Origin: a virus
DNA: 64,000 nt
Virus record (IMG/VR): IMGVR_UViG_3300045988_154953
Reading direction: 5' to 3' (one strand)
The notes beneath the pieces were generated by a model. That model did not search any database, was not told the origin of the DNA, and was given only the letters and a program-made list of their open reading frames with translations. Positions 8,548 through 50,163 of this stretch are shown in pieces. Position 1 is the stretch's first letter; each line of letters opens with the position of its first letter. The translations under genes were made by a program, and so were the position numbers.

Positions 8548-9481
8548 AAGAAAAGGATTAATCGGTGGCGTTGGATTGGCAGTATTAATCATTGGTGGTT
8601 TGTTTGTTGGAATTTCCTGTACAGAGAAAATTCCGGCGGGTTATGTCGGTGTAGTTTATAACTCACTAAACGGTGGTGTTGATGGAGAGGTTATCACACA
8701 GGGATGGCATCTCGTATCACCTACAAAGAAAGTCACTACATATTCAATCGGTATTGAACAGTCTTATCTCACATCAGAAGAGAAAGGTGATTCGCCAGTT
8801 GACGAAAGTTTTTCAACACCAACATCTGACGGTAAATCATTAACAGTTGATTTGGAATTTTCATACAAGTTTGATCAGGATAAGATCGCTGATACATTCA
8901 TAAAATTCAAGGGGCAATCTGGAAACACTGTTAAAGATACATTTATTAAACCTAAGATGAGAGCTTGGACACAGGAAGTTACAGCAAAATATCCTGTTAC
9001 TGATGTTTTTGGTGATAAGAGACAGGAATTAAACGAAGCACTTGATGTGTATCTAAAGCAGAAGTTTGAACCATATGGTATTATTATTGACACTGTGAAC
9101 TTCACAAATATCTCCACTGATTCAGAAACTGCAGAAGCAATTCAGAAGAAAGTTACAGCGCAGCAGGAATTAGAACTGGCAACTATTGAAGCTAAAACAG
9201 CTAAAGTACAGGCAGATAAAGACAAAGAAGTAGCTCTTATTGCAGCTGAACAGGAAAAAGAAAAAGCAGCTATTGTTGCAGAGCAGAAGAAAATTCAGGC
9301 AGAAGGCGAAGCACAGGCTACAAAGATTAAAGCTGATGCAGAAGCAGAAGCAAATGTAAAGATTGCTAAATCACTTACACCGGAGCTGATTGAAAAGCAG
9401 AAGATCGAAAAATGGAATGGTTCTGTTCCTACAGTCCAGGGTAGTTCAACACCTATTGTCAATATGAGTGATGATAAATAG
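8540..9481 (+). CDS. SPFH/band-7 (prohibitin/HflC-like) membrane protein
   Basis: It has an N-terminal TM helix, GYVGVVYNSLNGGV..ITQGWHLVSP typical of SPFH domains, and an Ala/Glu/Lys-rich coiled-coil tail. MAKRKG at 8540 is the likely start; the track starts at 8507. Confidence 0.75.
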   Translation: MAKRKGLIGGVGLAVLIIGGLFVGISCTEKIPAGYVGVVYNSLNGGVDGEVITQGWHLVSPTKKVTTYSIGIEQSYLTSEEKGDSPVDESFSTPTSDGKSLTVDLEFSYKFDQDKIADTFIKFKGQSGNTVKDTFIKPKMRAWTQEVTAKYPVTDVFGDKRQELNEALDVYLKQKFEPYGIIIDTVNFTNISTDSETAEAIQKKVTAQQELELATIEAKTAKVQADKDKEVALIAAEQEKEKAAIVAEQKKIQAEGEAQATKIKADAEAEANVKIAKSLTPELIEKQKIEKWNGSVPTVQGSSTPIVNMSDDK

Positions 9482-9539
9482 TTTTAGAAAACGAATTTGT
9501 TTGGTTATGGATTAAAATTTGATTCATAACCAAACGATA

Positions 9540-9663
9540 AAGTAATCAGTATATTAAGTATTATTACTTGATATCTGCAGGTGATTTTGCACCTGAAAAG
9601 TGAGGTTAATAACACTCACTAAAATCTGTGTAATTAGATTCGAAATGTACATGTGAATTTGAG
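9540..9663 (+). ncRNA. putative tracrRNA-like scaffold, upstream module (U)
   Basis: Stacked hairpins are present: aagtaat/attactt at 9540-9569, caggtg/cacctg at 9578-9595 and gtgag/ctcac at 9600-9619. A 14-nt block cactcactaaaatc (9613-9626) is identical to one in the downstream scaffold. It is followed by an 11-nt anti-repeat tctgtgtaatt (9625-9635). The 5' boundary is uncertain. Confidence 0.5.
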
Positions 9664-9765
9664 GTTTTAGAGATATATTAAATTACATAGATACAAAACT
9701 CATGGACTCTATAAGATAAGTATGGTGTGGTTTTAGAGATATATTAAATTACACAGGTACATAAA
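9664..9765 (+). CRISPR. mini CRISPR array U: 2 repeats, 1 spacer
   Basis: The repeat is GTTTTAGAGATATATTAAATTACATAGATACAAAAC (9664-9699). The second copy (9730-9765) is identical for 24 nt and then degenerate. The spacer is 30 nt (9700-9729) and the period is 66 nt. Confidence 0.6.
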
Positions 9766-9825
9766 TAAGTCTATAGATTTACATAATTATAAAATAATTA
9801 TAAATATGAAGGATAACAAATAGCA

Positions 9826-11556
9826 ATGAATACAATAAAAAATACATATATACGAACATTAAAATTTAATTTAAATTTAACACCAAAATTCGAAACAGAA
9901 GAAGATAATAAAAAATATATAAATGATGTGTATTCATATCTAAGAGATGCTATATGGGCACAAAATAGAGCTATGAATATTGTTCTTGATCGAACTAAAG
10001 AAGCTTATACACTTGGACGAGGGATGAACAGGGTTAAAGAAATATATTATTCATATTCCCATCAAAAACCAATTAGTAATGACAAAAAAGAAAGCTTCTT
10101 AGAATCATTGTTGCAGTATGCACCTATAGACGATCAATTTGTAAAAAATGAAGTTAAAAAATTACGTAAATTCTATGAATCTAAAAAGAAACCACCAAAA
10201 GAAGAAACTGTTTCTAAAAATTGTGAAGCTTTAAAAAATAAGTACATAAAATATGTTGGTAAATCAAAAGATGATGTCAAACGAGAATTAGATTTACTTG
10301 AAAATTATTGTGCATATCCAGAAGATATTTATGAAAAATTTGCTAACGGATTAAGCACACCTGCATATATAAAACAGAAAGTAGAATCTTATTGGAAACA
10401 GGATGGAATAAAAACAAAAGTTATTTACTCGATGGATGAAAATCTCAGACGAATAAAAGATGCTCCATTGTTCATACCACCAAATGTTTTTTACAATAAA
10501 AAAGATGAATTAATCGGTTTGGTATATGATTATACTGACTATATATCTTTTTTAGAAGATTTAGAAAATAAACGAAATGTAAATATATATTTAAGTATTC
10601 CATATAAAAAAGGTGAAGATAAATTAAAATTCAAATTAGTTCTAGGGAATCCACATAAGTCTCGTGATTCTAGATTATCCATAAAAAGAATTTTTGAAGA
10701 AGAATATAGAATTAAAGGCAGCAGTATTGGATTTACGAAGAATAAAGAAACTGGCAAAAATACAAATTTAACTTTATATCTTACTGTTGAAGTCCCACAA
10801 AATAAAGATAATACTCTTGATGAGAATGTAGTTGTTGGAGTAGATGTCGGCATCGCTATTCCATGTGTATGTGCTTTAAATAACGATAAATATACAAGAG
10901 AAAATATTGGAAGTTATGATACTTTATTTGCTAAAAGAACCCAGTTTAAAATGCAGAGAAGTAGATTGAATAGTCAATTAAAATTATCAAAGGGTGGACA
11001 TGGAAGAAAAAGAAAGTTAAAGAAATTAGAATTACTTTCAGGAAAAGAGAAAAATTACGTTGATACAGAATGTAGAAAGTATGCAAGTGATGTAATTAAA
11101 TTTTGTTTAAAACATCATGCTAAATATATTAATTTAGAGCACCTAAAAGGATATCGAGAGAATCCTAAAGTATTAGCTGGATGGAGTTTTTATAAAATCC
11201 AAACATATATTGAACAAGCAGCTGAAAAACATGGAATTATTGTAAGGAAAATTAATCCATGTTATACATCACAGATTTGTAGCGTATGTGGAAATTGGCA
11301 TCCAGAGAATAGACCAAAGGGTAAATTAGGGCAAGCATATTTTAATTGTCATAATATTGATTGTAAAACTCATAATACAGATTTGTATAAATATGGTATT
11401 AATGCAGACTTTAATGCTGCTAGGAATATAGCAATGTCAACATTATTTATTACCGATTCTGATGAGATCACAAAGAAACATTGGAAAGAAGCCAGAGAAT
11501 ATTATGGTATAGATGAATCGGATGATAAAGAAGAAAAATTAAATAAAGTAGCCTAA
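9826..11556 (+). CDS. cas12f: Cas12f (Cas14)-like / TnpB-derived RuvC nuclease, 576 aa
   Basis: The split RuvC triad is intact: VVVGVD340VG, INLE438HL and NAD528FNAARNIA. A zinc ribbon is present (C485xxC488 ... C508x4C513). GHGRKRKLKKL and the motif order are collinear with Cas14a1/Un1Cas12f1 as I recall it. Confidence 0.8.
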   Translation: MNTIKNTYIRTLKFNLNLTPKFETEEDNKKYINDVYSYLRDAIWAQNRAMNIVLDRTKEAYTLGRGMNRVKEIYYSYSHQKPISNDKKESFLESLLQYAPIDDQFVKNEVKKLRKFYESKKKPPKEETVSKNCEALKNKYIKYVGKSKDDVKRELDLLENYCAYPEDIYEKFANGLSTPAYIKQKVESYWKQDGIKTKVIYSMDENLRRIKDAPLFIPPNVFYNKKDELIGLVYDYTDYISFLEDLENKRNVNIYLSIPYKKGEDKLKFKLVLGNPHKSRDSRLSIKRIFEEEYRIKGSSIGFTKNKETGKNTNLTLYLTVEVPQNKDNTLDENVVVGVDVGIAIPCVCALNNDKYTRENIGSYDTLFAKRTQFKMQRSRLNSQLKLSKGGHGRKRKLKKLELLSGKEKNYVDTECRKYASDVIKFCLKHHAKYINLEHLKGYRENPKVLAGWSFYKIQTYIEQAAEKHGIIVRKINPCYTSQICSVCGNWHPENRPKGKLGQAYFNCHNIDCKTHNTDLYKYGINADFNAARNIAMSTLFITDSDEITKKHWKEAREYYGIDESDDKEEKLNKVA

Positions 11557-11713
11557 GTGCTACTAAACCAGTCGAAAGACTGCGGTGTGTTTTGGTGTGT
11601 TTATATAGCCTCAAATATAAACACCGCTATTGTGGATACAATAGTACGCCGAAAGGTGAGGATTCGTCACTCACTAAAATCCATGTTAAAACTTGTATCT
11701 ATGGTAATTTGGG
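11557..11713 (+). ncRNA. putative tracrRNA-like scaffold, downstream module (D)
   Basis: It starts right after the cas stop codon. Hairpins: cagtc-GAAA-gactg (11569-11582), a roughly 10-bp stem at 11597-11624, ctattgt/acaatag (11627-11644), and gtgag..UUCG..ctcac (11656-11674). Then come the conserved cactcactaaaatc (11668-11681) and the anti-repeat tccatgttaaa (11680-11690). Confidence 0.55.
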
Positions 11714-11881
11714 GATTAAGAAGTATATCATTTAACATGGGTACAAAACTCTATAGAGATACACTGTATATTTAGTTATGATTAAGAAGTATATCATTTA
11801 ACATGGGTACAAAACTCAGCACTGCATTTATTTTTAGGCAGGCACGATTAAGAAGTATATCATTTAACACGAATATAAAAA
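11714..11881 (+). CRISPR. mini CRISPR array D: 3 repeats (last one degenerate), 2 spacers
   Basis: The repeat GATTAAGAAGTATATCATTTAACATGGGTACAAAAC occurs at 11714 and 11780, with a degenerate copy at 11846. The period is 66 nt. The 30-nt spacers are at 11750-11779 and 11816-11845. Confidence 0.7.
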
Positions 11882-11899
11882 TGAAACGGAGACAACTAA

Positions 11900-12448
11900 T
11901 TGATTATTATTATTGGTAAAACCGCATCTGGTAAAGACACAATTGTAAAAGAGTTATGTCTAAATCATAATTTCAAAAAGATTGTTACATATACAACCAG
12001 ACCAATGCGAGAAAATGAAATTGATGGCACTACATACCATTATATATCAAATGAAGAATTTAAGGGAAAAATTAATGAAGGATTTTTTGTAGAATATAAA
12101 TCCTACCAATCTGAATTCGGTGAATGGTTCTATGGAACATCTGAAGAGAGCATTCTAAATTCTGATGACAAATCTATTATAATTCTTACACCTCAAGGGT
12201 ACAAAGATATCTTATCTAAATATCCCAATCTTAATTATAAATCCATTTATTTATATGCAAGTAATAGAACAATTAGAAAACGTTTAATACAGCGTGGAGA
12301 CGATGAGGCAGAAGCAAAGCGAAGAGTTAGACATGATAAGAAAGATTTTAGAGGTATTTATAAAATAGTAGATAAAGTTATTTGTAATAATCAAAATAAA
12401 CAATTTGAGAAGGTAATAAAAGAAATATTGGATGTGATTAAAGAATGA
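11900..12448 (+). CDS. gmk: guanylate kinase
   Basis: It has the P-loop GKTASGKDT and TTRPMRENEIDGTTYHYIS. The TTG start lies 7 nt after a GGAGA RBS. Confidence 0.75.
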   Translation: MIIIIGKTASGKDTIVKELCLNHNFKKIVTYTTRPMRENEIDGTTYHYISNEEFKGKINEGFFVEYKSYQSEFGEWFYGTSEESILNSDDKSIIILTPQGYKDILSKYPNLNYKSIYLYASNRTIRKRLIQRGDDEAEAKRRVRHDKKDFRGIYKIVDKVICNNQNKQFEKVIKEILDVIKE

Positions 12449-12930: not shown

Positions 12931-13806
12931 ATGAAAGTAGTCAAGAGAGATTGTACGCTGGTAGATTTTGATAAAAATAAAATTTACACAGCGATAATGA
13001 AAGCGATGAAGGATGGATCAGGAATTGTGAAGCCGAAGGTAGCAGAAGACATCTCAAATGAGATATATGAAATGCACAAAAATGACGATGAAATCGACAT
13101 TTCAACCATCGAATCAGAGGTCTTCGATAAATTGATTACAAAAAAACAAAGACTTACTGCCAGAGCTTATGAAGGATATAGAAGTAAACGAGAGCTGCAA
13201 CGAGAATATAACACTATAGATGATGAAATAATCGGCCTTGTCGAAGATAAAAATGAATATTGGAAAGATGAAAATGCAAACAAAAATCCAATATTAAATC
13301 CAACGAAAAGAGATTATATTGCCGGTTCAGTAAGTACAGATGCAACAAAAAGATATTTATTATCACCAGAAATAGTACAAGCTCATATGGATGGTATTAT
13401 TCACTTTCATGATGCAGATTATTTTATTCAACATATGCATAATTGTGATCTAGTTAATCTTGAAGATATGTTACAAAATAACACTGTAATTAGTGGAGTA
13501 TTAATTGAAAAACCACATTCTTTTTCTACTGCTTGTAATATAGCTACACAAGCCATTTCACAAATAGCAAGTAATCAATATGGGGGTCAAAGTGTTTCTT
13601 TGGCACATCTCGCTCCTTTCGTAGATATTTCAAGACAAAAAATAAGAGAAGAATTAGTAGAAGAATTTTCTTTATTGGGTTTCTCTAAGGGTGGAATTAT
13701 AGACGAAGATTTTAATGCAGTTGTAGAAAAACGTTTAAAGAAAGAAATTGAAAAAGGTGTTCAGACTATTCAATATCAATTAGTTACACTTATGACAACA
13801 AACGGT
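12931..13806 (+). CDS. nrdD: anaerobic ribonucleoside-triphosphate reductase, exon 1 (ATP-cone and N-terminal part)
   Basis: MKVVKRDCTLVDFDKNKIYTAIMKA is an ATP-cone. The ORF ends ..LMTTNG, directly before an intron-like sequence. Confidence 0.85.
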
Positions 13807-14861
13807 TAATTTTGGCTGTTGTAAAATCTTGTGAACCATGCCAATGGGTGTCTAATAAATTAGGCTAACGGTCAACTAACCTCAAGGGTAAGGTGGTAAG
13901 AGAACCTAAGTCCTGTAATAAGGATATGGTAATACCGTGTTAAGCGTTTTGTTTATAAAAATAAAAAAAGAAAGGGGGGGAATGAAAAATGTATGGATAT
14001 ATATATTTAACTACAAATCTAATCAACGATCGAAAATATATAGGAAAACATAAAAGTGAATTTTATGACGATAAATATTATGGGAGTGGAAAGATTCTTT
14101 TGCAGGCTATATCAAAATATGGTATTGAAAATTTTACGAATGAAATATTATACGAAGCGGATTACGCAGAAGAATTAAATAAAAAAGAAAAAGAATATAT
14201 TTCATTATATAGAGGAAAATATGGAAAACAAATGTATAATATAGCGTCTGGAGGAGACGGGGGAGATACATACTCATCTAAATCTGAAGAAGAAAAAGAA
14301 GATTTTGTTAAGAAAATGGAGAAAATAAATAGAGACAGATGTTCTTCGAAAGAATTTAAGATACAAGCTTCTGAACGTTTAACTAAAAAATATTCCAACA
14401 TTGAAGAAAGAAAATTACAATCCGAAAGAATTAAAAAAGCTTGGGATAATGAGCAATTAAAGGAAGATCAGAGCGAGCGATTAAAAAATTATTATAAAAC
14501 ACATAAAAAAGAAAATTCATATAATAACATTCCATGTGGGATTAAATTTAATGGGGTAAAATATGAATTTGAAAGTGTTAAGCAATTAAAAAAATTCATA
14601 AAAGAAGAGTTTAATTTTGTCCCAGGAAATTCAAAGATAAAACAGATGATGATTGATGGGACTAATGGTATTCCATATGTTTCTTTCTTTAAAAAATACA
14701 GTAATTTGAATGGCGCGTTACTTTATTATAAACAAAACGAAAATGTAGAGACTATGGGTGATGAATGTAGCCCAGTAGAGCATGAGATAGGCACATGCTC
14801 CAAGTGCAAGACTGAAATAGAAGAGATAGTCCGCTCTGCATAGAAATATGCAGATGGGGTG
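13807..14861 (+). mobile_element. group I intron in nrdD carrying a GIY-YIG homing endonuclease gene
   Basis: The last exon nt is T (ggT|taatttt) and the last intron nt is G (ggggtG|caagcc). Joining gives ..TTNG|QAPFITIF.. in frame. Structured GC-richer segments flank the ORF. Confidence 0.8.
13989..14843 (+). CDS. GIY-YIG homing endonuclease (intron-encoded)
   Basis: MYGYIYLTTNLINDRKYIGKH..YYGSG is the GIY-YIG motif. The gene lies inside the nrdD interruption. Confidence 0.85.
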   Translation: MYGYIYLTTNLINDRKYIGKHKSEFYDDKYYGSGKILLQAISKYGIENFTNEILYEADYAEELNKKEKEYISLYRGKYGKQMYNIASGGDGGDTYSSKSEEEKEDFVKKMEKINRDRCSSKEFKIQASERLTKKYSNIEERKLQSERIKKAWDNEQLKEDQSERLKNYYKTHKKENSYNNIPCGIKFNGVKYEFESVKQLKKFIKEEFNFVPGNSKIKQMMIDGTNGIPYVSFFKKYSNLNGALLYYKQNENVETMGDECSPVEHEIGTCSKCKTEIEEIVRSA

Positions 14862-16229
14862 CAAGCCCCTTTTATTACAATTTTCATGTATCTTAATGAA
14901 GCCAAAAACGAACAAGAAAAACACGATTTAGCTTTATTAATCGAAGAAATGCTTCATCAAAGAATCAAAGGAGTAAAAAATAAAGAAGGAGTTTATGTAG
15001 CACCTGCATTTCCTAAACTAATTTATGTTTTGGAAGAAGATAATATTCATGAAGATTCAAAATATTGGTATTTGACAAAATTAGCTGCGGAGTGTTCTTC
15101 TAAACGTTTAGTTCCAGATTATATTTCAGAAAAAATTATGCTTGAAACAAAAGGTGATGTATACACCTGTATGGGATGTAGATCATTTTTAACAGTAGAT
15201 AGATTTTCTGATAAAGTTTCTAACATTGCCAATGCGAAAAATTACGAACCTGACAAACACAAATATTACGGACGCTTCAATCAAGGTGTAGTTACACTTT
15301 CACTACCAGATATTGCTTTATCTTCAGAAGGTGATTTCGATACATTTTGGAAAATTTTTGAAGAAAGAACTGAATTGTGTCATAAAGCACTTAGAATCAG
15401 ACATGAAAGATTGCGCGGTACATTATCTGATGTTGCTCCTATATTGTGGCAAGATGGTGCTCTTGCTCGATTAAAAGAACATGAAAAAATCGATAAACTT
15501 CTTTATGATGGTTATTCAACTATATCTTTGGGATATGCCGGTTTATATGAATGTGTAAAATATATGACTGGACATTCTCATTCTGATGAAGGTATTGGCG
15601 AAGAGTTTGGATTAAAAGTTATGCAAGCTCTTAATGATAAGTGTGCTCAGTGGAAAAATGCTGAAAATATAGATTATAGTTTGTATGGTACGCCTCTCGA
15701 AAGTACAACGTATAAATTTGCAAAATGCTTAAAGGCTCGTTTTGGTAAAGATGTATTTATTAGATTGGATGGATTTGATAGAAATTATATAACTAATTCA
15801 TATCATATTCCAGTGTTTGAGCCAATTACAGCGTTTGAAAAACTTAGAATAGAAGCAAAATTCCAATTATTAAGTCCTGGTGGAGCCATTTCTTATGTAG
15901 AAGTACCAAGCATGTCTCATAATATTAATGCTTTGATCGAAGTTATCAAATTCATTTACTATCACATTCAGTATGCAGAAATTAATACTAAAAGTTGCTA
16001 CTGTGAAAAATGTGGCTATGATGGAGATATTCCTCTTGTACTAGATGAAAATGGTAAATATAGATGGGAGTGTCCACAATGTGGCAATATAGATAATACT
16101 ACCATGGATATTGCTTTTAGAGTCTGTGGTTACATTGGTACTGCAAAAAATGGTGGTAATCAAGGACGATATGGTGATGTACATGATCGTGTATATCACT
16201 TAGATGATATAGAATATAATGAGAAATAG
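14862..16229 (+). CDS. nrdD: anaerobic ribonucleoside-triphosphate reductase, exon 2 (C-terminal part with glycyl-radical site)
   Basis: It begins QAPFITIF. It contains the C-terminal Zn site CEKCG..CPQCG and the glycyl radical motif RVCGYIG. Confidence 0.85.
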   Translation, partial: QAPFITIFMYLNEAKNEQEKHDLALLIEEMLHQRIKGVKNKEGVYVAPAFPKLIYVLEEDNIHEDSKYWYLTKLAAECSSKRLVPDYISEKIMLETKGDVYTCMGCRSFLTVDRFSDKVSNIANAKNYEPDKHKYYGRFNQGVVTLSLPDIALSSEGDFDTFWKIFEERTELCHKALRIRHERLRGTLSDVAPILWQDGALARLKEHEKIDKLLYDGYSTISLGYAGLYECVKYMTGHSHSDEGIGEEFGLKVMQALNDKCAQWKNAENIDYSLYGTPLESTTYKFAKCLKARFGKDVFIRLDGFDRNYITNSYHIPVFEPITAFEKLRIEAKFQLLSPGGAISYVEVPSMSHNINALIEVIKFIYYHIQYAEINTKSCYCEKCGYDGDIPLVLDENGKYRWECPQCGNIDNTTMDIAFRVCGYIGTAKNGGNQGRYGDVHDRVYHLDDIEYNEK

Positions 16230-16231
16230 TT

Positions 16232-16705
16232 ATGAATATAAATTATAATTTTAGAAATATACACAATACATACAAAAAATGTTCCATTTTAACATATGAT
16301 GAAGATGAAAATTATGAAGAATATGACGGAAACGAAGAAAATTACGAAACTTTTACAATTACGTCACATCACAGAGAAGTAATCTTAACGAATGAGAAGC
16401 ATCATCAATCTATAATTTTTCATGAATATAGATATAATGACGAGTCTAAATTAGATGATGTTTGTGATATTGCAAATTACATTAATGATAAAGCATATAC
16501 GTATCTTTGTAATGTTTTGAACACAACTGATAGCGTGACTGTATTCTGGAGTCAAATATTTGGAACAACAAGTGATTATACAATTATCTATGATAATTAT
16601 TTTACTGATGGTGAAGAATGTAGAAATTATTTAGAACAAAACTATGATTATTGCTCTTATAAGTATGTTGAAATATTAGGAAATGAACGTAGAAAATGTT
16701 TTTAG
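16232..16705 (+). CDS. hypothetical acidic protein
   Basis: ORF between nrdD and nrdG, rich in Asp, Glu, Tyr and Asn. Confidence 0.6.
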   Translation: MNINYNFRNIHNTYKKCSILTYDEDENYEEYDGNEENYETFTITSHHREVILTNEKHHQSIIFHEYRYNDESKLDDVCDIANYINDKAYTYLCNVLNTTDSVTVFWSQIFGTTSDYTIIYDNYFTDGEECRNYLEQNYDYCSYKYVEILGNERRKCF

Positions 16706-19669: not shown

Positions 19670-20857
19670 TTGAATAATGTGAAAGCAATTATAAAAGGAA
19701 TGACATTATATAAACGCAGCGATGGCCGATATGAAGGCCGTATCACGGTTAATGGCAAGCGTAAGAGTTTTTATGGTACAACGAAAGTTGAGGTGAAGAA
19801 TAAAGCCAAAGAGTATTTAACAAAAGTTGAAAACGGCTATGTTGAGCCTACTAAAATTATATTCAATGAATACATAGAATACTGGCTGAAAACTTATAAG
19901 AAGAATAAGATTCAAGATTCGTCATACAGTCGTCTGTACACAACATATTTACATCAAATTAAACCAACAATAGGTCAAATGAAGATGGGGAACATTAAGA
20001 CGAAAGACATCCAAAATCTGATTGATGAATATGCTAATCCAACCAGTGCTGATGTAAAACCTTTGTCGCTGTCTGGCTTAAAGAAGCTTACGCATCTTAT
20101 AAGGCCATGTATGCAAATGGCTGTTACAGAAGGACTGTTGCAAAAGAATCCCTGTGATAATGTGGTCTTTCCGCAAGAAGACTGTATTCAAGTAGATACA
20201 AAGCAGCAGTACAGTTTGTCAGATGATGAATTGAAAAGAATTAGAATGGCAGCGTTGACGAAGTATAAAAATGGACGGTATCGCAGTCGGGATTGGATTG
20301 TTCTTTTGATTATGTTGAACACAGGTTTACGTGTCGGTGAAATGTTGGCTCTGACATGGAAGGATATTGATTTTGAGAATCGAACAATGCATATCTGTAA
20401 GACGCTTCAAAGTAACATTAGAAACTATGATGATTTAGAACATGTTGTTTATTATTCGAAGATTAAGAAGTCTGCAAAGACAAAGAACGGTGTCAGATAT
20501 ATTTCATTGAATACGCAGGTTCTTCAGTATCTTCAGATGTTAAGGGGCTTTGATGAAGAGAATAAAATCAAATCCGATTATGTTGCATGTACAACTGTAG
20601 GGACTATGAATTGTTCAAGAAATCTACAAAGAAGTCTTGACAGATTAGTAAAATTTGCAGGAATACAACCAGAGTCACATGTATCATTACATACTTTAAG
20701 ACATACGTTTGGATCAACATTATTAAGACATGGGATAGGTATCGAAGTTATTAGCAAACTAATGGGACATGCAAATATTACTATTACATATAACAAATAT
20801 ATCCATGTCATACAGGAAGAGCAGGCCAAAGCAATGAATTTAGTTAATGTGTGCTGA
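19670..20857 (+). CDS. int: tyrosine integrase (phage integrase family)
   Basis: Catalytic pattern: LRVGEMLAL, HTLRHTFGS and LMGHANITITYNKYIH. It has an N-terminal SAM-like/arm-binding region. The TTG start follows GGAGGTG. Confidence 0.9.
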   Translation: MNNVKAIIKGMTLYKRSDGRYEGRITVNGKRKSFYGTTKVEVKNKAKEYLTKVENGYVEPTKIIFNEYIEYWLKTYKKNKIQDSSYSRLYTTYLHQIKPTIGQMKMGNIKTKDIQNLIDEYANPTSADVKPLSLSGLKKLTHLIRPCMQMAVTEGLLQKNPCDNVVFPQEDCIQVDTKQQYSLSDDELKRIRMAALTKYKNGRYRSRDWIVLLIMLNTGLRVGEMLALTWKDIDFENRTMHICKTLQSNIRNYDDLEHVVYYSKIKKSAKTKNGVRYISLNTQVLQYLQMLRGFDEENKIKSDYVACTTVGTMNCSRNLQRSLDRLVKFAGIQPESHVSLHTLRHTFGSTLLRHGIGIEVISKLMGHANITITYNKYIHVIQEEQAKAMNLVNVC

Positions 20858-21871: not shown

Positions 21872-22852
21872 TTATATAATTTCTGCGTAAATATTTTTCC
21901 AGTAATTAAATCTACCTTTTACAGACTGTGAGCTACGTGTACCGCCTTTAGAGTAGATTTCCTTGTATGCTGTATTATCCTTATATGTATCTGAAAATTC
22001 TTTAATTGCTGCTACAAGTTTATCAAAATTTTTTCCATCTCTCAAACACTGTACACCGATGTAAAGAATCATTGGAATAGAAGCATATAGGTAAGGTGTC
22101 TTATCCATCTTTTCATCCAATAAATCGAGAACATCTACTATAGCAGTTGCGTCAGATTCATCAATATTACCTGCATACCAAACTACAAACTTGTCAAGTG
22201 TCGGTTTAGAGAAGCTTAACGTTTCTTTATCATCTGTTATACTAAGTAACATAAGCGTTTCTCGTATAAGATCTCTGTTGTTATCGCCCAATAGTTGTTT
22301 TGGACTCAAAATCTTCTTGAAGAATGGATGTTCAGCAAGTGGAAATACAATATCACTAACTACTTTAGGTTCAATAGCTGTACGTTTCTGAGTAGCGGTG
22401 AGTGCTTTACCGTTGTTTTGTCTTCGGTACATCTCTCTGATTTCTTCGTCAGTTGCATTTGTGAATATGTAAAGTGTGATTTCAAAATTTAATATTTTGT
22501 CTTGGAGTACAGGATCCAATTCAGAAAATTTCTTACCAGCTGTATCATACGGAACATTATCTATAAGAACTGGTAGATTGTTATTGGATAATGCAAATCC
22601 ATCCTCTATATATTCTGCAAAAGACGTACTACGTTGTATACCATCAAATATACACCTAATATCATCTAATACAGCAGCTCTTATTGGATCGATTAAGAAA
22701 TCACGAAAGATAGAATCTATCAAAAGACATTTCTGAGGTTTTGTCCATTGATCTTCTTTTCTCTGCAAATAATGATGTAGATTATATTTCTTTTCATCTC
22801 GAATATCTTTAGTAAAATTTGCTAATAGTCGTTTTTCACTTTTACACTCCAT
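21872..22852 (-). CDS. DUF262 (ParB-like/GmrSD N-terminal) domain protein
   Basis: YLQRKEDQWTKPQKCLLIDSIFRDFLIDPI and DGIQRSTS (the DGQQR motif) are present. No DUF1524/HNH domain follows. Confidence 0.7.
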   Translation of the reverse strand: MECKSEKRLLANFTKDIRDEKKYNLHHYLQRKEDQWTKPQKCLLIDSIFRDFLIDPIRAAVLDDIRCIFDGIQRSTSFAEYIEDGFALSNNNLPVLIDNVPYDTAGKKFSELDPVLQDKILNFEITLYIFTNATDEEIREMYRRQNNGKALTATQKRTAIEPKVVSDIVFPLAEHPFFKKILSPKQLLGDNNRDLIRETLMLLSITDDKETLSFSKPTLDKFVVWYAGNIDESDATAIVDVLDLLDEKMDKTPYLYASIPMILYIGVQCLRDGKNFDKLVAAIKEFSDTYKDNTAYKEIYSKGGTRSSQSVKGRFNYWKNIYAEII

Positions 22853-42981: not shown

Positions 42982-45900
42982 TTAAATGTTCAATTCTATT
43001 ACAACACCATAAGATTCTGATGGTTGAGCAAATCCACTATAACTACCATCTGCTTTAACATAATAATAATAAGCAGCATAGCCAACATTAGGAGAACGAG
43101 TAATATAATCAACAGCTATATTGTTTGAATCTTTTCGGATTCTATCTTCATCATTGATCATATAATCAATTGGATCGTCTTCGTTAATATATGGTTCAGT
43201 TGATATAGTTGATGATCCCAATTCATAAATGGCTGGTATATACACATAGCAATCTGTTTCAGCAATGTTATTTTTATTATTTTTGTCCATATCAGCATAT
43301 TTCACTTTAACCTTTTTTACGAGTTGTTTAATTTGAACTGGTAAACCTTTGTAAAATCTTGTATTAAGCCAAGTACTTAATTGTGTTCTTCCCCATCCAC
43401 CTTCATTAGTATAAGAGTTATCTATCGATCTCTTAATGTTAAGTGTGTGAGAAGCTAAAAATGTCATGGATGATCGCTTTCCAGAACCATCGGAAAGATA
43501 TTTACGTTTAAAACCACACATTTGTACATTCACTTTTTCATGAATATATTCTGCAAGATTTTTACATGCTTCTTCGCCAAGATCCGTATACCAAAGTTTT
43601 GACCAATGAATAGTACCTTTAGCATAACGTTCATAAGAACCATCATCAGCTTTGACACAACCAAACACTAATGTAGAAGAAGAAATAGTAGATTTATTTC
43701 TTTCTAATTTAACCGTATTAACAGATGTACCGGAAAGATTTGACATGTAAACATGTAAATTATTTTCACCTTTAACATGTCTCAATACTAACATTTCTCG
43801 ATTGGTACTTGTTGCACATTGAGCAGAAGATGTACCCCATTGAATTTTTGGTGTACTGTTATATACTAATTTAAAACCATCACTACCATCTGATTTAAAA
43901 CATTGCATAAGAGTAGAGTTATTTGTATTTCCTGTAGCAAATTCAAAGTCTACTGCAAATACAAAATCTCGGTCAATGTCCATTATAGCAACATTAGTGT
44001 CGATATAATTATTCCCAGTAAACACTGTTTTTTCATTGATGAAAGTTTTACTTTGGATATCATCATAATCATAATCATTTCCGGTTGTAAAATTAAAATC
44101 ATCCATTAATTCAACGATGCTTTGTTCTATTCCAACTTTTGTCAATGCATACATTTCAACAGGTGTCATTTCCGATAAATCCTTATTATCGAAATATCCG
44201 CTTGAATATGAACATATATCAAACACAGCGTTAATCGTTTTATCACCATCTACATATCCAGATTTATCCCAACGATTAAAAAGATAATATTTATACGCAG
44301 TTTCCTCACCGGTATAAGTAGGAATATCACCTGTATAAAATACAGTAGTTCCATAAGGAGCACTTGTTTCTTGCATAACAGTAGATTTAGATACAAATTT
44401 TATCGTGTAATTTCGGATAGTTTTAGAATATGTCGCTGTAAAAATCATGTTCTCAAACATATTAACAAAATTAGTATCCCATCCTTTAAATGTGTAATTA
44501 TATTGAATCGTACTCTTTTGAGTAGGAGTTTCAATAGGATCAATTTCTCGTGTAATAGGATCTACAGGTTTATTACCTTTATCAACATATTGGATATCAA
44601 GAATTGTTCCATCTGTATTTTTGAATGTAGCTGTAAATTGTTCAATAATGGAATCATAAGTTACATCTAAATCATTCCATGCATCATTATATCTTTTAAG
44701 TTCTTGTTGTCTTATAACTGGTACATGAACATTACCTGTCAATACAGATTGATCAGCGTTATATCCATTTTTATCAATACCACCCATTTTATAAATACGT
44801 TCAAGAAGAGAAGTATTATCAAGCTGCCAATCTATACCAATGATTCTTGCTCTGTTAATTCTAGGAGATTTTTCAAGCAAATCTTTTACATTGATTGTGT
44901 TACAGTTTTCTAAGATAACTGTGCTAATTGAATCGTATCCAGCAATAGAAAGATTGGTTAAATAAATTAAGTTTCTCATGTTTATAGAGGTGAGGGTTTC
45001 CGGTAAAAGAGCAGTTCTGATATTACCGCCATTTGCAAATAAAATACCTCTTAATCCTGATCCTGTTGCATAAAATTCTCTAAGATTCATACATTTGGAA
45101 AGATCCAAACTACTTACTAAATTAGGTGTATTTCGAACATCCAATTTTTCAAGAAGTTTATTATTCCCAATGACAAGATTTGTTAAGAATGTATTAGAGT
45201 AACCTGTAGTTGTGTTACCAACAATTAATTCCTTTAATCTTTCTGCTTTTGAGAAATCGTTATCATGGATATAACATGCAGATACATCACCAACAGATTG
45301 AATTCTAGATGCACCATAAATTAATACAGCAGTATCATCCATTGTACTATATGGGCATGTGATATTATATTGTCGACCAGCTTTTGCACGTATCTGAGTA
45401 GGAGATGAGTTACCAAACATAACTGACAAATACATATCAGAGAAAGGTGTTAAATGAAGAGTGTAATCAGGTTTAACAATAGCATCTTTTGGAGTATTAC
45501 ATCTAAACATAATTTGATCAGATGTAATTGTATTACCAATGAACTTAGTAGCCATATAAACTTCTTGGTCACGTTCGAATTGTCGTCTTTGGTATTTCTT
45601 TTTGCCGTTCATCATCTGTTCAAGGAATCGAGTGTTTCCATCTCTATATGGACGTTCGTATTTACGTACATAGTCAATTCGCCATAATTCTTCTGGCCAT
45701 TCATTTTGTATCTCGTCAAATTGATTAATTAACGAAGATGCACTCCAGCAGTTTTTACTTTCGCGTGATATATATGTCTTTTGTAAATCTGATTTCATTA
45801 AATCACGAATTCTACAGAAGAATACTGATTCAGCTGCATTAAATATATATCCAGATGATGGATCTCCATCTGTACGATAGTCAGTATCTTCCTTACCATA

Positions 45901-48900
45901 TGTCATAGTAAGCTCGCCGCTGTTATTGATTCCAAGAGAACTATCGTTATCATAATCCCACAGATCATAGCGATAGCCATTATTAATACTTGCAGCAGTA
46001 TCATCTATTGTATAATAATTTGCTTTTTCACCCATCTCAGCAGCTTCACTTGTAGAAATATAATGTTTAGCCCAATGCCAAAATGTATTTTTACTTCTAT
46101 TATCTATCATCGTATATCTAAGTGTGAACAAATAAAAATACAAAGCCGAATCAACAATAAACCAATCTTGAAGTTTATTTTTGAAATCCTCATCACTAGA
46201 GGTAATTACAAACTCATAAAAATCTCTCCAAATTTGTCTGTTTTTAGTTCTAATCTTTTCTTTCTCTTCATCCGTAGATGTTGGATCACCGTCTTTAGAA
46301 TCTCCGCAACAATCATATCTAAATTCGAATGAGCCATCCCAATTGTTATAAAGATTGTCATATGCTTCGTTTCCAGTTGTCCATTCAGCTTTAGAGATAG
46401 GATATTTCATAGAACTATCTGAATTTGTTACGCCTGTTTGGAAAGTTGAGTTTGGAAGAGTATTGTCACTTATTTCGATACAGAATTCATTCATATCATC
46501 TGGATCATAAGCTCTACTTACATCTGTCTTCTTAGAGTCACCGATGTTACCCAACGCATAATAATGCCATTCACAATCCTGGAATTCTCTATGAGTAGAA
46601 ACATCAGGATCGCTTTCTTTAATAAATACAACACAGTTCACAAATTCCATATCATTTTTAACTCTTGGATCACGTTTCTGAGCAGGAGATGTATATGGAA
46701 GATAGGTATTATAACGTTTCTGTAAGTACGCATTATTGACCATTTCAGATGAAGCCACGTTCACTTTGATATTGAACCAGTTATTTGGAATAGATGTTCT
46801 AGTTAAAGAAATTTTACCTGTTCCATCGTTATATTCTGTTCCATCACCCAAAATTAATTTAGTAATATAATTTGGATCTAAATCTATCTTACTTGTAACT
46901 TGATGTTTACCATCGAATCCACAAATAACATCTATATTACGTCCACTAGCACCATATTCGTTACTAGTCGTACCTTGTCCTGAATGATACGCATTGATAA
47001 ATTTCCAATTATCAAGAATTGGATCACCGTTTTTGTAAATACATTCAACGGAAGTGTCTTTTATGAAATCTTTTTTATTATTTGTAAAGTGAGGAGCTTC
47101 GATTTTAATGACTCTCATATTAGGACATGCGTTTGCAACTGAATCAGGAGTTAAAAGATTATTTTCATCGTAAATTTGATTTCTTGTATAACGATTGATC
47201 ATTTCCGTTGCTGTACGTGCATCTGCAATGAAGTTAGAAAGAATAGCAGAACTCGTAAGACTCGTATTATAAGCCTTCATACGATAGATTGAAACATCAC
47301 AATCAGGAGAACCGATAGTGATTGGAACAGGAGATTCCTGAGTAAATGAATAATCATTTGTATAACTCATTGGTCTACACGGTGTACCATCTTCATACGA
47401 CATAACAATAGGAATATCCGTATCTTTATTAATGTTGAATTCCCACTCGATAATATCTTCTTCACTATATGGAATATAAAGGGATTTTGCGCTAGATTTA
47501 ATATATGCTTCATGAACATTCATTTGAAGACCAATTGAAGTTACATCTCCAGATTGACATGTTAAGAAAGTAGCATTACTTTTAGCAACACTTGTTGTTT
47601 TAAAAATAAATTTAAATTCTTTACCATTTTTTCTAGCATCATCCGCAAATAGATTGTACGAGATAGTAGCAGTGGTGCCAGCTTTTACTCCAAAATATTG
47701 ATCACCATTCCCATCAATCTGATAACCACCATTGACCCAATCAAAGTTTTCAGATACTGTCATCTTAATATCTGGATTATCTTTATCTACCCATAGTCTA
47801 TCTGAATCACTATTAGATTTACCTGTTGGATTAAAGTCAAACATGAGACCAGCTGTTACTGGTTCTACATCTATATCAAGTTTTTCAATTGTAACAGTAA
47901 GAGTTTTGACCGTTTGTCCACAAGTGATAGTCAATGTATGTTGACCAATATCAGATGATTTATATTGCCATGTTTGAGTATTGCTATCAATTGTAAGAGT
48001 AGATGTAACTTTTCCATCGACAGCTAATGTAATTTCTGGTGTTTCTGTCGTTGGATCATAAACAGTATAAACAATGTTTGTTGCATCATATTGTTTAGCT
48101 GTAAATTTTTGCTGTACACAACCAATCACAGGAATTGTACTCTGACTATCATACCAAATAATATCTTTTGTGATATGATTTGATTCAATTGTATTACCAT
48201 TTATTTCAGCTGTCATATATACGTCTAACAAATGTGATCCATGAGATTGAGTCGGAAGAGAATAGGACATTGGAACACCAGATGAAGATGTTGTAACTTT
48301 TCCAATTTCTTTATTGTCAAGAACAAAATGAACATCTTTTACTACAGCACCATATGGAGTATAATCAAATGCTACATTGTCAATTGGATAAGTTAATTTA
48401 TCGTTAAAAGTAGATTCTAAACGAACATCGACTTTTTGTACCGTCCAATTCTTTGATACTAAAGTACCCGCATCGTCTGTAATCTGAAGACTTACCTTTT
48501 GGCTACCAATTGTAATAAAGTCAGTAACATCAAAAGAATTTTCGCCAGAAATAGCTGTATTTGTAGCTACAATAGTACTGCCAACTTTCCATGTAGCCTT
48601 ACCTTCAAGAACTGGATCACCTGAAGAATCTACACCAGAAAAATTGTATTTAATAATAACTTTGTCTGTTAATGTAACAACAAGAGGTGTTTTTGTTACG
48701 TATTCAATTTTTAATGTACTTGTTGTACCTCCACCACCAGATCCGCCAGTAATAACCATTTTTGCTTTAACAGTTCTTTCTTCATTCTCTTTACCTTCAT
48801 TTTTGATTTCGAAAAAAGCTAAAGTGTTTTTACCGACATTTTCATCCTCTTCATCATTGTATTTGATATCGTATGTTAAACGTGGATCTTTATCTATTCC

Positions 48901-50163
48901 ATCTACTTCTGTCTGCAAATTTGAGAGAGTAGTACTTAACTTAGAAATATTTGTTGTATTTGTTTTAATTGATGAATTAAGAGTATTTTCCTTATTATCA
49001 ATTTCATTCTTTGAATAAACATTTTCTGTTTTTGCATAATCAGTTAATTGATCTGTAACATCAATGCTTGATATTTTTTCATCTACTTGGGTCTTAGTAT
49101 AATATTCTTTTAACTGTTCAGATACATCTACCGCGGCCACTGCTTCGTCAACATAAGAAGTTGTAGCCATATTTTCAATATCTGATTTTGTCGCATATGC
49201 AGAAGCTGCGTCAGAAGATTTTAAATAACCTACATCATCAGTAAATTGTGATAATTTTGTCGGTAGATCACTTCTAGTAATATATCCAGAATCATTTGTA
49301 AGTTCGCTTGTTTTCTTTGGAAGCTCTGTTTTGAGAGCATAATTTTTCAACTGACCAGAAATGTCTACTGATTTAATAGCACTGTCTACATAACTTGTTG
49401 TAGCATATCCTTTTGTTGCTAAAACATTTTCAACAGTATTTTTTGCATTGTTTGCTGATGTTTTGGCTTCTTCTGCATATTGTTTGGCTTTATCCACCTG
49501 GTCTCCAATTTGAGCTTGAGCCACTTGTTTTGCAACTTTCTCAGATACACTTTCAACGATTTCTTGAACCCAAGAATCATTTATATTAATAGTTCCACCG
49601 CAATCAGTGCCACATATAGACTGTAATACGTTTAAAGTATCATTTGATTTTGTTTTCCATACATATGCATATGATTTTCCTGAATTATCATAAATAGAAC
49701 CAGCCGCATGTATTTCAAAACTTACTTGTCCTGCAACACCAGTAACACTTCCATCAATTAACCATGCAAACCGAATTTTTTCGTTGTTGTATTCTACATT
49801 AACAGCTTTTGATGAAGCATGTTTTCCATCACTTCTACTGTAATGAATTGATATGGCATAATTTGTTAAATCTATACCATCGTAATATCTCGACATTTCA
49901 AATGGTATAAATTGGGAATTTTCTTCTTGAGTAATATTAATCTGTTTACTATTTAATGAAATATTTTTTTCATCGTTAACCGTAGATATGTTATCATCTC
50001 TATAATCAAACCACTTGTAATTATTATCCCTTGTCCAGGAATCTGAATATGTAGAAATATCATCTAACTCAGATGCTACTACAGGGGTGGCTTCATCCGA
50101 AGAAAAAGTTGATATTTTTTTTGAATCCTGCGTTGCATTTTTTAAGGAATCTGCAAAAGACAT
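42982..50163 (-). CDS. giant (2393 aa) multidomain tail adhesin or receptor-binding protein
   Basis: Domains in order: an N-terminal BppU_N-like domain, fibre repeats (TTSYVD.A..VD.S.QL), a large central domain, BspA-type leucine-rich repeats (LEKLDVRNTPNLVSSLDLSKCMNLREF..), Flg_new-like repeats (YNYTFKGWD) and a DUF6273-like C-terminus. Confidence 0.75.
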   Translation of the reverse strand: MSFADSLKNATQDSKKISTFSSDEATPVVASELDDISTYSDSWTRDNNYKWFDYRDDNISTVNDEKNISLNSKQINITQEENSQFIPFEMSRYYDGIDLTNYAISIHYSRSDGKHASSKAVNVEYNNEKIRFAWLIDGSVTGVAGQVSFEIHAAGSIYDNSGKSYAYVWKTKSNDTLNVLQSICGTDCGGTININDSWVQEIVESVSEKVAKQVAQAQIGDQVDKAKQYAEEAKTSANNAKNTVENVLATKGYATTSYVDSAIKSVDISGQLKNYALKTELPKKTSELTNDSGYITRSDLPTKLSQFTDDVGYLKSSDAASAYATKSDIENMATTSYVDEAVAAVDVSEQLKEYYTKTQVDEKISSIDVTDQLTDYAKTENVYSKNEIDNKENTLNSSIKTNTTNISKLSTTLSNLQTEVDGIDKDPRLTYDIKYNDEEDENVGKNTLAFFEIKNEGKENEERTVKAKMVITGGSGGGGTTSTLKIEYVTKTPLVVTLTDKVIIKYNFSGVDSSGDPVLEGKATWKVGSTIVATNTAISGENSFDVTDFITIGSQKVSLQITDDAGTLVSKNWTVQKVDVRLESTFNDKLTYPIDNVAFDYTPYGAVVKDVHFVLDNKEIGKVTTSSSGVPMSYSLPTQSHGSHLLDVYMTAEINGNTIESNHITKDIIWYDSQSTIPVIGCVQQKFTAKQYDATNIVYTVYDPTTETPEITLAVDGKVTSTLTIDSNTQTWQYKSSDIGQHTLTITCGQTVKTLTVTIEKLDIDVEPVTAGLMFDFNPTGKSNSDSDRLWVDKDNPDIKMTVSENFDWVNGGYQIDGNGDQYFGVKAGTTATISYNLFADDARKNGKEFKFIFKTTSVAKSNATFLTCQSGDVTSIGLQMNVHEAYIKSSAKSLYIPYSEEDIIEWEFNINKDTDIPIVMSYEDGTPCRPMSYTNDYSFTQESPVPITIGSPDCDVSIYRMKAYNTSLTSSAILSNFIADARTATEMINRYTRNQIYDENNLLTPDSVANACPNMRVIKIEAPHFTNNKKDFIKDTSVECIYKNGDPILDNWKFINAYHSGQGTTSNEYGASGRNIDVICGFDGKHQVTSKIDLDPNYITKLILGDGTEYNDGTGKISLTRTSIPNNWFNIKVNVASSEMVNNAYLQKRYNTYLPYTSPAQKRDPRVKNDMEFVNCVVFIKESDPDVSTHREFQDCEWHYYALGNIGDSKKTDVSRAYDPDDMNEFCIEISDNTLPNSTFQTGVTNSDSSMKYPISKAEWTTGNEAYDNLYNNWDGSFEFRYDCCGDSKDGDPTSTDEEKEKIRTKNRQIWRDFYEFVITSSDEDFKNKLQDWFIVDSALYFYLFTLRYTMIDNRSKNTFWHWAKHYISTSEAAEMGEKANYYTIDDTAASINNGYRYDLWDYDNDSSLGINNSGELTMTYGKEDTDYRTDGDPSSGYIFNAAESVFFCRIRDLMKSDLQKTYISRESKNCWSASSLINQFDEIQNEWPEELWRIDYVRKYERPYRDGNTRFLEQMMNGKKKYQRRQFERDQEVYMATKFIGNTITSDQIMFRCNTPKDAIVKPDYTLHLTPFSDMYLSVMFGNSSPTQIRAKAGRQYNITCPYSTMDDTAVLIYGASRIQSVGDVSACYIHDNDFSKAERLKELIVGNTTTGYSNTFLTNLVIGNNKLLEKLDVRNTPNLVSSLDLSKCMNLREFYATGSGLRGILFANGGNIRTALLPETLTSINMRNLIYLTNLSIAGYDSISTVILENCNTINVKDLLEKSPRINRARIIGIDWQLDNTSLLERIYKMGGIDKNGYNADQSVLTGNVHVPVIRQQELKRYNDAWNDLDVTYDSIIEQFTATFKNTDGTILDIQYVDKGNKPVDPITREIDPIETPTQKSTIQYNYTFKGWDTNFVNMFENMIFTATYSKTIRNYTIKFVSKSTVMQETSAPYGTTVFYTGDIPTYTGEETAYKYYLFNRWDKSGYVDGDKTINAVFDICSYSSGYFDNKDLSEMTPVEMYALTKVGIEQSIVELMDDFNFTTGNDYDYDDIQSKTFINEKTVFTGNNYIDTNVAIMDIDRDFVFAVDFEFATGNTNNSTLMQCFKSDGSDGFKLVYNSTPKIQWGTSSAQCATSTNREMLVLRHVKGENNLHVYMSNLSGTSVNTVKLERNKSTISSSTLVFGCVKADDGSYERYAKGTIHWSKLWYTDLGEEACKNLAEYIHEKVNVQMCGFKRKYLSDGSGKRSSMTFLASHTLNIKRSIDNSYTNEGGWGRTQLSTWLNTRFYKGLPVQIKQLVKKVKVKYADMDKNNKNNIAETDCYVYIPAIYELGSSTISTEPYINEDDPIDYMINDEDRIRKDSNNIAVDYITRSPNVGYAAYYYYVKADGSYSGFAQPSESYGVVIELNI

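Follow-up and report, generated by a model that had tools for sequence, protein, structure and literature searches.

Effectors of the Cas12f1/V-U3 kind without adaptation genes have already been described among CRISPR systems, and so have phage-borne V-F1/V-U3-like nucleases adjoining repeat-spacer arrays (PMC12607003, PMC12297358). The subject here is such a nuclease gene, together with the RNA modules on its two sides, at positions 9,540 to 11,881 of a 64,000-nucleotide (nt) stretch of viral DNA, IMG/VR record IMGVR_UViG_3300045988_154953, which is called the window throughout. The gene encodes a protein of 576 amino acids (aa), and each of its flanks holds a scaffold resembling a trans-activating CRISPR RNA (tracrRNA) that runs into a short array; the upstream unit is designated U and the downstream unit D. 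It is highly probable, in our judgement, that gene and flanks together make up a type V-F1 (Cas12f1/V-U3-like) CRISPR cassette that is self-contained but adaptation-less, travels on a large gut phage and targets other mobile elements. The enzyme alone is of a known kind, and the reports just cited settle a point left open in the preliminary description of this stretch, namely whether the effector subtype had been described before. The multi-cassette guide architecture and what seems a borrowed leader signal, on the other hand, look new.

The V-F1 Cas12f1 proteins, among them CnCas12f1 (8HR5), Al3Cas12f (9NZO/9NZR), AsCas12f and SpCas12f1, have the same RuvC/TNB fold and order as the phage protein and about 45% identity to it over the C-terminal 300 aa. 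The likeness extends to the 36-nt repeats and 30-nt spacers, to a tracrRNA that has an anti-repeat and forms a pseudoknot with the repeat 3' end, and to the lack of an adjacent adaptation module. Compared with these enzymes, however, the phage protein is larger (576 against 415–500 aa) and has a longer helical N-terminal region; it is also phage-borne, and its gene is flanked on either side by short arrays, several in number, every one of which has a separate tracrRNA. Adaptation-less miniature Cas12 proteins with short arrays likewise occur on phages in the form of Cas12j/CasPhi, CasLambda, Cas12p “hacker”, CauTranC9 and Cas14j/k, and phage miniature Cas12 have been proposed to act against rival elements (bioRxiv 10.1101/2025.01.20.633832; bioRxiv 10.64898/2026.03.27.714800; PMC12607003). 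Although an AAAC:UUUG pseudoknot is present in Cas12p too, these are different protein families, and multiplied tracr-plus-array cassettes have not been described for them in the accessible literature.

Repetition of an entire scaffold-guide unit around a Cas12f1-derived protein is known from the omega-RNA-like arrays beside V-U40-43 and from the nuclease-dead, RpoE-associated TnpB clade, in which the scaffold 3' end is likewise derived from a CRISPR repeat (Altae-Tran et al., 2023, PMC10691335). Those units combine a fused scaffold with one guide and their protein is often nuclease-dead, whereas the phage units are true arrays with turnover beside an intact nuclease. The Vibrio phage ICP1, whose type I-F system is directed against the PLE satellite, offers a precedent for a phage-carried CRISPR with spacers matching another resident mobile element, but there the class 1 system is complete, adaptation module included, while the present phage has its own effector and tracrRNAs without adaptation genes in the window; archaeal viral mini-arrays, in turn, depend on host effectors, unlike this phage, which brings its own (PMC11656645). 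A likeness of another kind links the locus to type II-A systems, exemplified by S. thermophilus CRISPR1, through the ATTTGAG/GTTT junction, the 36-bp repeat, the 30-bp spacer and the leader-proximal position of new spacers (PMC4330368, PMC5382924). Here, by contrast, the “leader” is a Cas12f tracrRNA gene, none of the 67 open reading frames (ORFs) analysed in the window matches cas9, cas1, cas2 or csn2, and a use of type II-A functions is something that we infer. The accessible literature, which did not cover Al-Shayeb et al. 2022, contains no description that we could find of one intact Cas12f1 with multiple tracrRNA-leader-mini-array cassettes co-evolving with their repeats, of the type II-A junction motif in such phage cassettes, or of the targets reported below; a search of the literature for natural loci that have more than one tracrRNA returned nothing relevant.

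An intact Cas12f1-type effector

The effector gene occupies 9826..11556 on the + strand. The intact split RuvC triad and four-cysteine zinc ribbon claimed in the preliminary description were confirmed at D340 (in GVDVG), E438 (NLEHL) and D528 (NADFN), motifs typical of RuvC I, II and III, and at C485, C488, C508 and C513. An alignment of 60 homologues shows no variation at the three acidic residues or at C485, C488 and C508, and conservation of 90% or more at C513. The searches against Cas12f and TnpB profiles and structures that had been suggested as a check were carried out, with the PADLOC Cas12u3 model matching residues 32–545 at E = 1.2e-74 and the Cas12f model at 2.6e-70. The Pfam Cas12f1-like_TNB domain scores above its cutoff and OrfB_IS605 matches weakly, and the generic guided_TnpB subfamily of NCBIfam is also above cutoff (126 bits against 100). 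Cas12f2 was ruled out as an identity, the NCBIfam Cas12f2 “exception” model reaching 85 bits against a cutoff of 450.

A sequence search of the PDB returned 8hr5 as the best match (3e-47), with Al3Cas12f at 5e-42 (9nzo/9nzr, entries identified through PMC13186708 and the Foldseek listing) and further matches to RhCas12f, SpCas12f1, AsCas12f and Un1Cas12f. The AlphaFold2 model of the protein (predicted local distance difference test score 87, predicted template modelling score 0.73) gave the same picture in Foldseek, where the top 22 matches are all Cas12f, led by CnCas12f1 (8hr5_A, 9e-26) and followed by Al3, As, Sp and Un1. TnpB structures (8iaz, 8h1j) appear from rank 24 down, far behind Cas12f. 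The Cas12p “hacker” identity, which the common AAAC:UUUG pseudoknot had raised, was rejected (9jfs_A at rank 25, E = 1.2e-10, 13% identity, and no sequence match in the PDB), and CasLambda ranks 37th by structure. Because sequence and structure evidence agree, the 576-aa protein is an intact Cas12f1/V-U3-type effector with an enlarged helical N-terminal region, and neither an insertion sequence (IS)-borne TnpB nor a member of a named phage-specific family.

Two tracrRNA-array modules around one gene

On both flanks a scaffold adjoins its array without a gap and in the same orientation, and all of the features that follow lie on the + strand. The U tracrRNA-like scaffold (9575..9663), of a short type and supported by folding and covariation, consists of stem 1 (9578-9583/9590-9595), whose loop ATTTTG (9584-9589) is the putative pseudoknot strand, stem 2 (9599-9620), the anti-repeat ATCTGTGTAATT (9624-9635) and the leader-end motif ATTTGAG (9657-9663). 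It is continued by the U mini-array (9664..9765), made up of a repeat (9664-9699), spacer U1 (9700-9729) and a degenerate terminal repeat (9730-9765). The D scaffold (11583..11713) is of a long type and is supported by its fold and by paired changes in long-type relatives: stem 1 (11583-11588/11646-11651) encloses the pseudoknot strand GTTTTG (11589-11594) and two inserted hairpins, and is followed by stem 2 (11655-11675), the anti-repeat ATCCATGTTAAA (11679-11690) and the leader end ATTTGGG (11707-11713). The D mini-array (11714..11881) comprises a repeat (11714-11749), spacer D1 (11750-11779), a second repeat (11780-11815), spacer D2 (11816-11845) and a degenerate terminal repeat (11846-11881).

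These coordinates bear out the earlier count of two repeats and one spacer in U and three repeats and two spacers in D, with repeats of 36 nt, spacers of 30 nt and a start-to-start spacing that is always 66 nt. The stated identity of the U and D repeats at 26 of 36 positions, with the common 3' end TACAAAAC, likewise holds, and in the terminal repeat of each array this conserved end is lost. The scaffold motif CACTCACTAAAATC is present at 9613 and 11668, and no further copies of repeat or scaffold were found in the 64-kb window. Two assignments had to be changed. The U scaffold proper starts at about 9575, and position 9544 is the left edge of the conserved cassette, where 92% nt identity to a related locus (L001) begins, the flanks beyond being unrelated; a hairpin at 9499-9535 was reassigned to the upstream gene. 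The interval between these two positions (9544..9574), 5' of the U tracrRNA, could possibly have a promoter role, and a consensus promoter scan found no more sites than in shuffled sequence. Directly 3' of the stop codon, a hairpin with a GNRA loop (11569..11582) may be the gene terminator or a 5' element of the D scaffold.

Lining up 105 modules from the window and 87 related loci yields a common plan. From 5' to 3' it reads stem 1 with (G)ATTTTG in a loop or multiloop, the linker GAAWR, an invariant GTGAG-loop-CTCAC hairpin, TAAAAT, a 12-nt anti-repeat, a variable stretch, ATTTGAG and the first repeat.

Two details of the window arrays may be recorded here. At 9760-9795 a weak repeat-like stretch (position weight matrix score 21) runs into the second, degenerate U repeat at its end; it is out of the 66-nt register, and may be the remnant of an older repeat. 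Spacers U1, D1 and D2 (from 9700, 11750 and 11816) all start with TC, so that the repeat is apparently 2 nt longer in this phage only; the feature is absent in relatives, and may be due to chance (about 1 in 250) or to an acquisition bias.

Compensatory change and cognate pairing

Folding of each scaffold with its first repeat gave a minimum free energy of −31.3 kcal/mol for U (z = −3.5) and −52.7 kcal/mol for D (z = −4.1). Stem 1, the GUGAG hairpin and a duplex of 12 bp between anti-repeat and repeat come out in both folds, in which the terminal seven repeat bases, ACAAAAC, stay unpaired. This unpaired end and the stem-1 loop are complementary (repeat CAAAA, tracr UUUUG), and across the family loop and repeat end change together, as in TTTCG/CGAAA, TTCAG/CTGAA, TTTGA/TCAAA, CTTTG/CAAAG, CCTTT/AAAGG and GTTCTG/CAGAAC; long-type relatives have GTTTCG with CGAAAC and GTTCTG with CAGAAC.

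Covariation was assessed on an ungapped alignment of 44 distinct short-type modules, with segments anchored at the hairpin and the repeat end. Stem 1 is paired in 97.7% of cells with compensatory change at 5 of 6 pairs, the pseudoknot in 95.9% (4 of 5 pairs) and the anti-repeat duplex in 82.4% (9 of 12 pairs), which amounts to 91.2% and 18 of 28 pairs over all helices. Controls in which the 3' partner was slid by 1–3 columns are paired in 29–46% of cells, a contrast inflated by the anchored segments and by the derivation of the structure from the U module, and none of 500 shuffles reached the observed covariation score. The numerous double-sided changes are not an artefact of these choices. 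A pairing of the repeat 5' end (GUUUUAG) with its own 3' end or with the tracr TAAAAT box was also considered and was dropped, its variants showing no consistent covariation.

The anti-repeats of the window pair at 12 of 12 positions with their own repeat and at 8–9 of 12 with the repeat of the other module. Family-wide, cognate pairing averages 10.2 of 12 positions against 8.8 for non-cognate combinations, a difference reached in none of 5,000 permutations. Since cognate pairing exceeds non-cognate pairing both in the window and across the family, the earlier proposal of two guide families is right; and both flanks are, as was also put forward at the outset, true tracr-plus-array modules, with predicted helices that covary in the 44 modules.

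Relatives and mobility of the cassette

A profile built from 17 full-length homologues found at least 185 relatives on IMG/VR viral contigs, and 80 loci were kept, mostly from contigs of 50–215 kb. In most of the 78 loci scanned (L010–L087) the gene is flanked, on one side or on both, by arrays with a 66-nt period. One to three modules per side are present in most of the 80 loci, and viral loci frequently have two or three arrays on a side that are separate and have a scaffold apiece. In the loci scanned the modules are always accompanied by an intact cas12f gene, and a stringent tracr core motif was present in 66 IMG/VR stretches. The dual-module layout, which had been singled out as unusual, is thus typical of a large phage clade and not unique to this phage. 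In a 74%-identical relative (L002, 3775-6470) three modules were observed, of which one, with just one repeat, stands upstream and the other two form a tandem downstream, which implies that the number of cassettes changes quickly.

Among cellular genomes the picture is different. In GTDB, with one genome per species, the best match is partial and at most 43% identical, and the cellular relatives collected (L088–L130) have, with few exceptions, just one array, which lies downstream of the gene and in several cases is long; their repeats are different and the ATTTGAG junction is lacking. One short contig in an Erysipelotrichaceae metagenome-assembled genome (L089, URQL01000274.1, 2.2 kb) carries a module of the phage family (ATTTGAG/GTTATGG...ACAAAAC); it may be a weak hint at host range or a binning artefact.

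A homologue of the protein with 98% identity stands in a different gene neighbourhood. In L001 the whole cassette is 92% identical at the nt level from 9544 into the D array, where homology stops, and the neighbouring genes differ. On account of this close homologue in another neighbourhood and the bounded nt homology, the cassette behaves as a discrete, movable unit.

Spacer turnover and the leader-repeat junction

Among near-identical phages the distal spacers are common and the scaffold-proximal end differs. Thus the array of L027 is contained in that of L026, and that of L033 in those of L032 and L087, with the same pattern in L004, L010 and L011. Such polarised turnover is the signature that Cas1-Cas2 integration would leave, though adaptation genes are absent from the neighbourhood. 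The first repeat is preceded by the heptamer ATTTGAG, exactly in 42 of 90 unique modules and with at most one mismatch in 68 of 90; conservation sets in abruptly at position −7, and 67 of the 90 repeats start with GTTT. The U module matches ATTTGAG/GTTT exactly (9657-9667), and the D module reads ATTTGGG/GATT. The 66-nt period holds in 84 of 110 units of the family. The U repeat has 24 of 36 positions and the termini GTTTTAGAG...CAAAAC in common with what we take to be the S. pyogenes type II-A repeat.

Group-1 type II-A loci have ATTTGAG/GTTT as their conserved leader-repeat junction (PMC5382924). Adaptation in S. thermophilus CRISPR1, with its 36-bp repeats and 30-bp spacers, needs sequences within 10 bp of this junction, and a leader with a single repeat is sufficient (PMC4330368). 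It is possible, and we offer this tentatively as somewhat short of an even chance, that the scaffold also serves as a leader, and that the type II-A Cas1-Cas2(-Csn2) integrase of the host, hijacked in trans, writes the spacers. Cas9-dependent selection of the protospacer adjacent motif (PAM) alone would not give Cas12f-compatible spacers.

Spacer targets in other mobile elements

A metagenome scan with the first 22 nt of D2 identified three human-gut contigs in which the match has non-repeat flanks and extends over the full 30 nt with 0–1 mismatch. Six more contigs encoding the same target protein have the D2 site with two mismatches, and across all nine loci the mismatches fall at PAM-distal positions 23–24. 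The 5' flank of the protospacer is ATATTTTA in 9 of 9 loci, with TTTA constant, which suggests TTTA as the PAM of the 576-aa enzyme; several Cas12f enzymes have T-rich PAMs. The site lies inside a gene for a 110-aa protein of unknown function, whose neighbours encode an Xre-type helix-turn-helix protein, a DnaD-like replication initiator, two phage PHROGs of unknown function and a serine recombinase, and on a 104-kb contig the element abuts chromosomal genes. Given these neighbours and this junction with chromosomal genes, the D2 target is best read as a prophage-like or satellite-like integrated element, and it lends direct support to the suggestion in the preliminary description that the system is used against competing mobile elements. 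The bacterial contig with the D2 target (L177, at 13328-14700 and 16307-16387) also carries ordinary IS605 tnpA/tnpB copies and, beside the targeted element, a YoeB/Phd toxin-antitoxin pair.

The leader-proximal spacer of a relative (L056, 3642-3671) matches at 30 of 30 positions the 5.6-kb plasmid LC817946.1 (4496-4525; L249, 2801-2830) of Waltera intestinalis, a member of the Lachnospiraceae. The match covers the ribosome-binding site and the start of an unannotated ORF for a small hydrophobic peptide. The 5' flank of this protospacer, ACAGGTACA, was seen to resemble the 3' part of the CRISPR repeat. Taken together, the D2 and L056 matches point to a putative role in mobile-element conflict in gut Firmicutes.

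Other searches were negative within their scope. None of the three window spacers has a self-target in the window at up to three mismatches, nor an exact 22-nt match in IMG/VR, and a spacer conserved between L004 and L010 occurs in IMG/VR in its own arrays only. Family spacers, harvested as a set of 73 and then of 183 including reverse-strand duplicates, have no non-array match in the collected loci except that of D2, and the D2-target locus itself has no match in INPHARED or PLSDB.

Proposed mechanism and alternative explanations

In the mechanism that we propose, the gene supplies an intact Cas12f1-type RuvC nuclease of 576 aa, and on each flank a tracrRNA gene passes directly into a mini CRISPR array. 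Folding and covariation predict that the transcript forms stem 1 with its (G)UUUUG loop, the GUGAG...CUCAC hairpin and a duplex in which the anti-repeat pairs over 12 bp with the repeat's 3' half, and the spacer-adjacent repeat end CAAAA/C would pair with the stem-1 loop as a pseudoknot, in the manner of Cas12f/TnpB guides. For the first spacer this pairing could take place within one molecule and yield a natural single guide, and later spacers would pair with the tracrRNA in trans. Because anti-repeat/repeat pairs have co-diverged, each scaffold would be expected to prefer its own array. The loaded nuclease, probably a homodimer by analogy with other Cas12f, would cut double-stranded DNA bearing a 5' T-rich PAM (TTTA in one case), and its targets would be other mobile elements in the same host, such as the prophage-like element (D2) and the small Lachnospiraceae plasmid (a relative's spacer). 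With less confidence, new spacers may enter at the tracr-proximal repeat via Cas1-Cas2 acting in trans.

Several points weigh against this account. The guide RNAs and the cleavage, RNA ends and processing included, are predictions from sequence and folding; the alignment was anchored by hand and the tested structure was taken from the window's own U module. The TTTA PAM derives from a single protospacer family, and the 5' flank of the L056 protospacer differs (GTACA). Spacers U1 and D1 have no match in the window or, as exact 22-nt words, in IMG/VR; about 140 family spacers gave one match in PLSDB, and 73 gave none in INPHARED. The target-bearing bacterium, moreover, is a candidate host of the phage.

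Clustering with IS-associated TnpB and flanks that are transposon ends formed one outcome that the preliminary description had set against itself. Such an ordinary IS200/IS605-type element, whose downstream non-coding RNA would be a single-guide omega RNA, is largely refuted and barely credible now: the above-cutoff guided_TnpB score, the weak OrfB_IS605 match and the different neighbourhoods of the cassette in two phages are in keeping with it, but the best profile and structure matches are Cas12f/V-U3, with TnpB structures at rank 24 or lower, the flanks consist of repeat-spacer arrays whose spacers are unique and turn over in a polarised way, the gene is single-copy in the window, and its immediate neighbours are SPFH and guanylate-kinase-like genes, not Y1 TnpA (a statement about the neighbours only, no window-wide Y1 search having been made). 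Sharp borders at 9544 and the terminal repeat around a cassette 92% nt-identical at different intergenic sites of two large phages, in a window that also holds classical homing endonucleases, one of them splitting nrdD, would suit an RNA-guided homing or marker-exclusion device, in which guides cut cassette-free alleles at co-infection and repair copies the cassette in. We regard this as unlikely, given that the only protospacers found belong to a prophage-like element and a plasmid, neither of which is related to the insertion site, and that no harvested spacer matches the window or a related locus outside arrays.

The resemblance of the U repeat to the presumed S. pyogenes repeat, termini included, bears on another reading, that the modules are decoys or parasites of host type II-A systems whose repeat RNAs or leader-repeat DNA soak up Cas9, tracrRNA and Cas1-Cas2, with Cas12f targeting secondary. 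So does the identity of the ATTTGAG/GTTT junction with that of type II-A group 1 (PMC5382924, PMC4330368). This is nevertheless very unlikely in our view, as the repeats covary with their own adjacent scaffold and not with an external partner, an intact cas12f gene always accompanies the modules, and the spacers are diverse, at least two of them with plausible targets. The cassette might also be a relic in decay, or else a regulator that, like TldR/Cas12m, acts independently of nuclease activity, with arrays that no longer guide cleavage; the tiny arrays of one or two spacers, the degenerate terminal repeats and the lack of a known target for two of three spacers fit such a state. Against it stand the catalytic triad and zinc ribbon conserved across 60 homologues, RNA helices kept by compensatory change, spacer content that turns over between near-identical phages, and a perfect protospacer match with a conserved PAM-like flank, and its chances seem slight even beside those of a decoy. 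A functional, self-contained Cas12f1 cassette directed at other mobile elements is the reading that we prefer.

The phage and its window

The window is phage DNA, with tail-fibre and minor-tail PHROGs, NAMPT, a split NrdD, a guanylate-kinase-like protein, a nucleoside deoxyribosyltransferase and a tyrosine integrase. Its sequence was recovered within a 215-kb metagenome contig in ENA (ERZ27262592 k119_156924), and the carrier of the cassette is a large human-gut phage with a contig of at least 215 kb. The earlier statement that the 64 kb hold no cas1, cas2 or cas4 stands: PADLOC gave 0 matches to Cas1, Cas2 or Cas4 at E≤1e-5 among the 67 window ORFs of at least 70 aa, a scan that leaves about 150 kb of the 215-kb contig outside its scope. 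Among the same ORFs one protein matches the Cas12u3 and Cas12f models. An SPFH gene lies upstream of cas12f and the guanylate-kinase-like gene downstream; the nucleotide-metabolism setting described before is therefore right for the downstream side, with the kinase, the deoxyribosyltransferase and NrdD, and not for the upstream neighbour. That the phage is temperate, as had been stated, is plausible in view of the tyrosine integrase (19670-20857). Neither Rfam at E≤10 (9300-12100) nor a megablast of the locus against INPHARED gave a match, and tblastn gave distant TnpB-like matches only.

Other genes of the window may be noted briefly. A GmrSD_N-domain protein is encoded after the integrase on the opposite strand (21872-22852), and a related GmrSD_N gene lies near the L001 cassette. 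The anaerobic ribonucleotide reductase gene nrdD is split into an N-part (12931-13809) and a C-part (14859-16229), with a 284-aa ORF (13989-14843) in between; homing-endonuclease models in PADLOC match two window ORFs, and the split looks like a homing-endonuclease or intron insertion. PADLOC also pointed to possible defence or counter-defence genes, namely DarG-like (1.6e-16), NsnA (2.3e-24), HEC-09 (7e-14) and a type II restriction enzyme (2e-6). Two giant ORFs stand in the structural region, one of 2393 aa (42982-50163) that matches only PHROGs of unknown function and one of 1824 aa (58192-63666) that matches none.

Implications

In this phage clade one Cas12f is naturally accompanied by guide scaffolds that are in part orthogonal, an example of direct value for multiplexed editing with compact nucleases. 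The protospacers in a prophage-like element and a plasmid show what such systems of gut phages are aimed at, and provide a first guess, TTTA, at the PAM. The evidence for continuing, polarised acquisition without nearby adaptation genes, together with a junction identical to that of type II-A loci, makes viral cross-type “adaptation piracy” directly testable. If spacers are indeed supplied in trans by type II-A machinery, each tracr-leader-array unit would amount to a guide cassette that is portable and evolves independently, and this would explain why such cassettes have multiplied and co-diverged around one nuclease gene.

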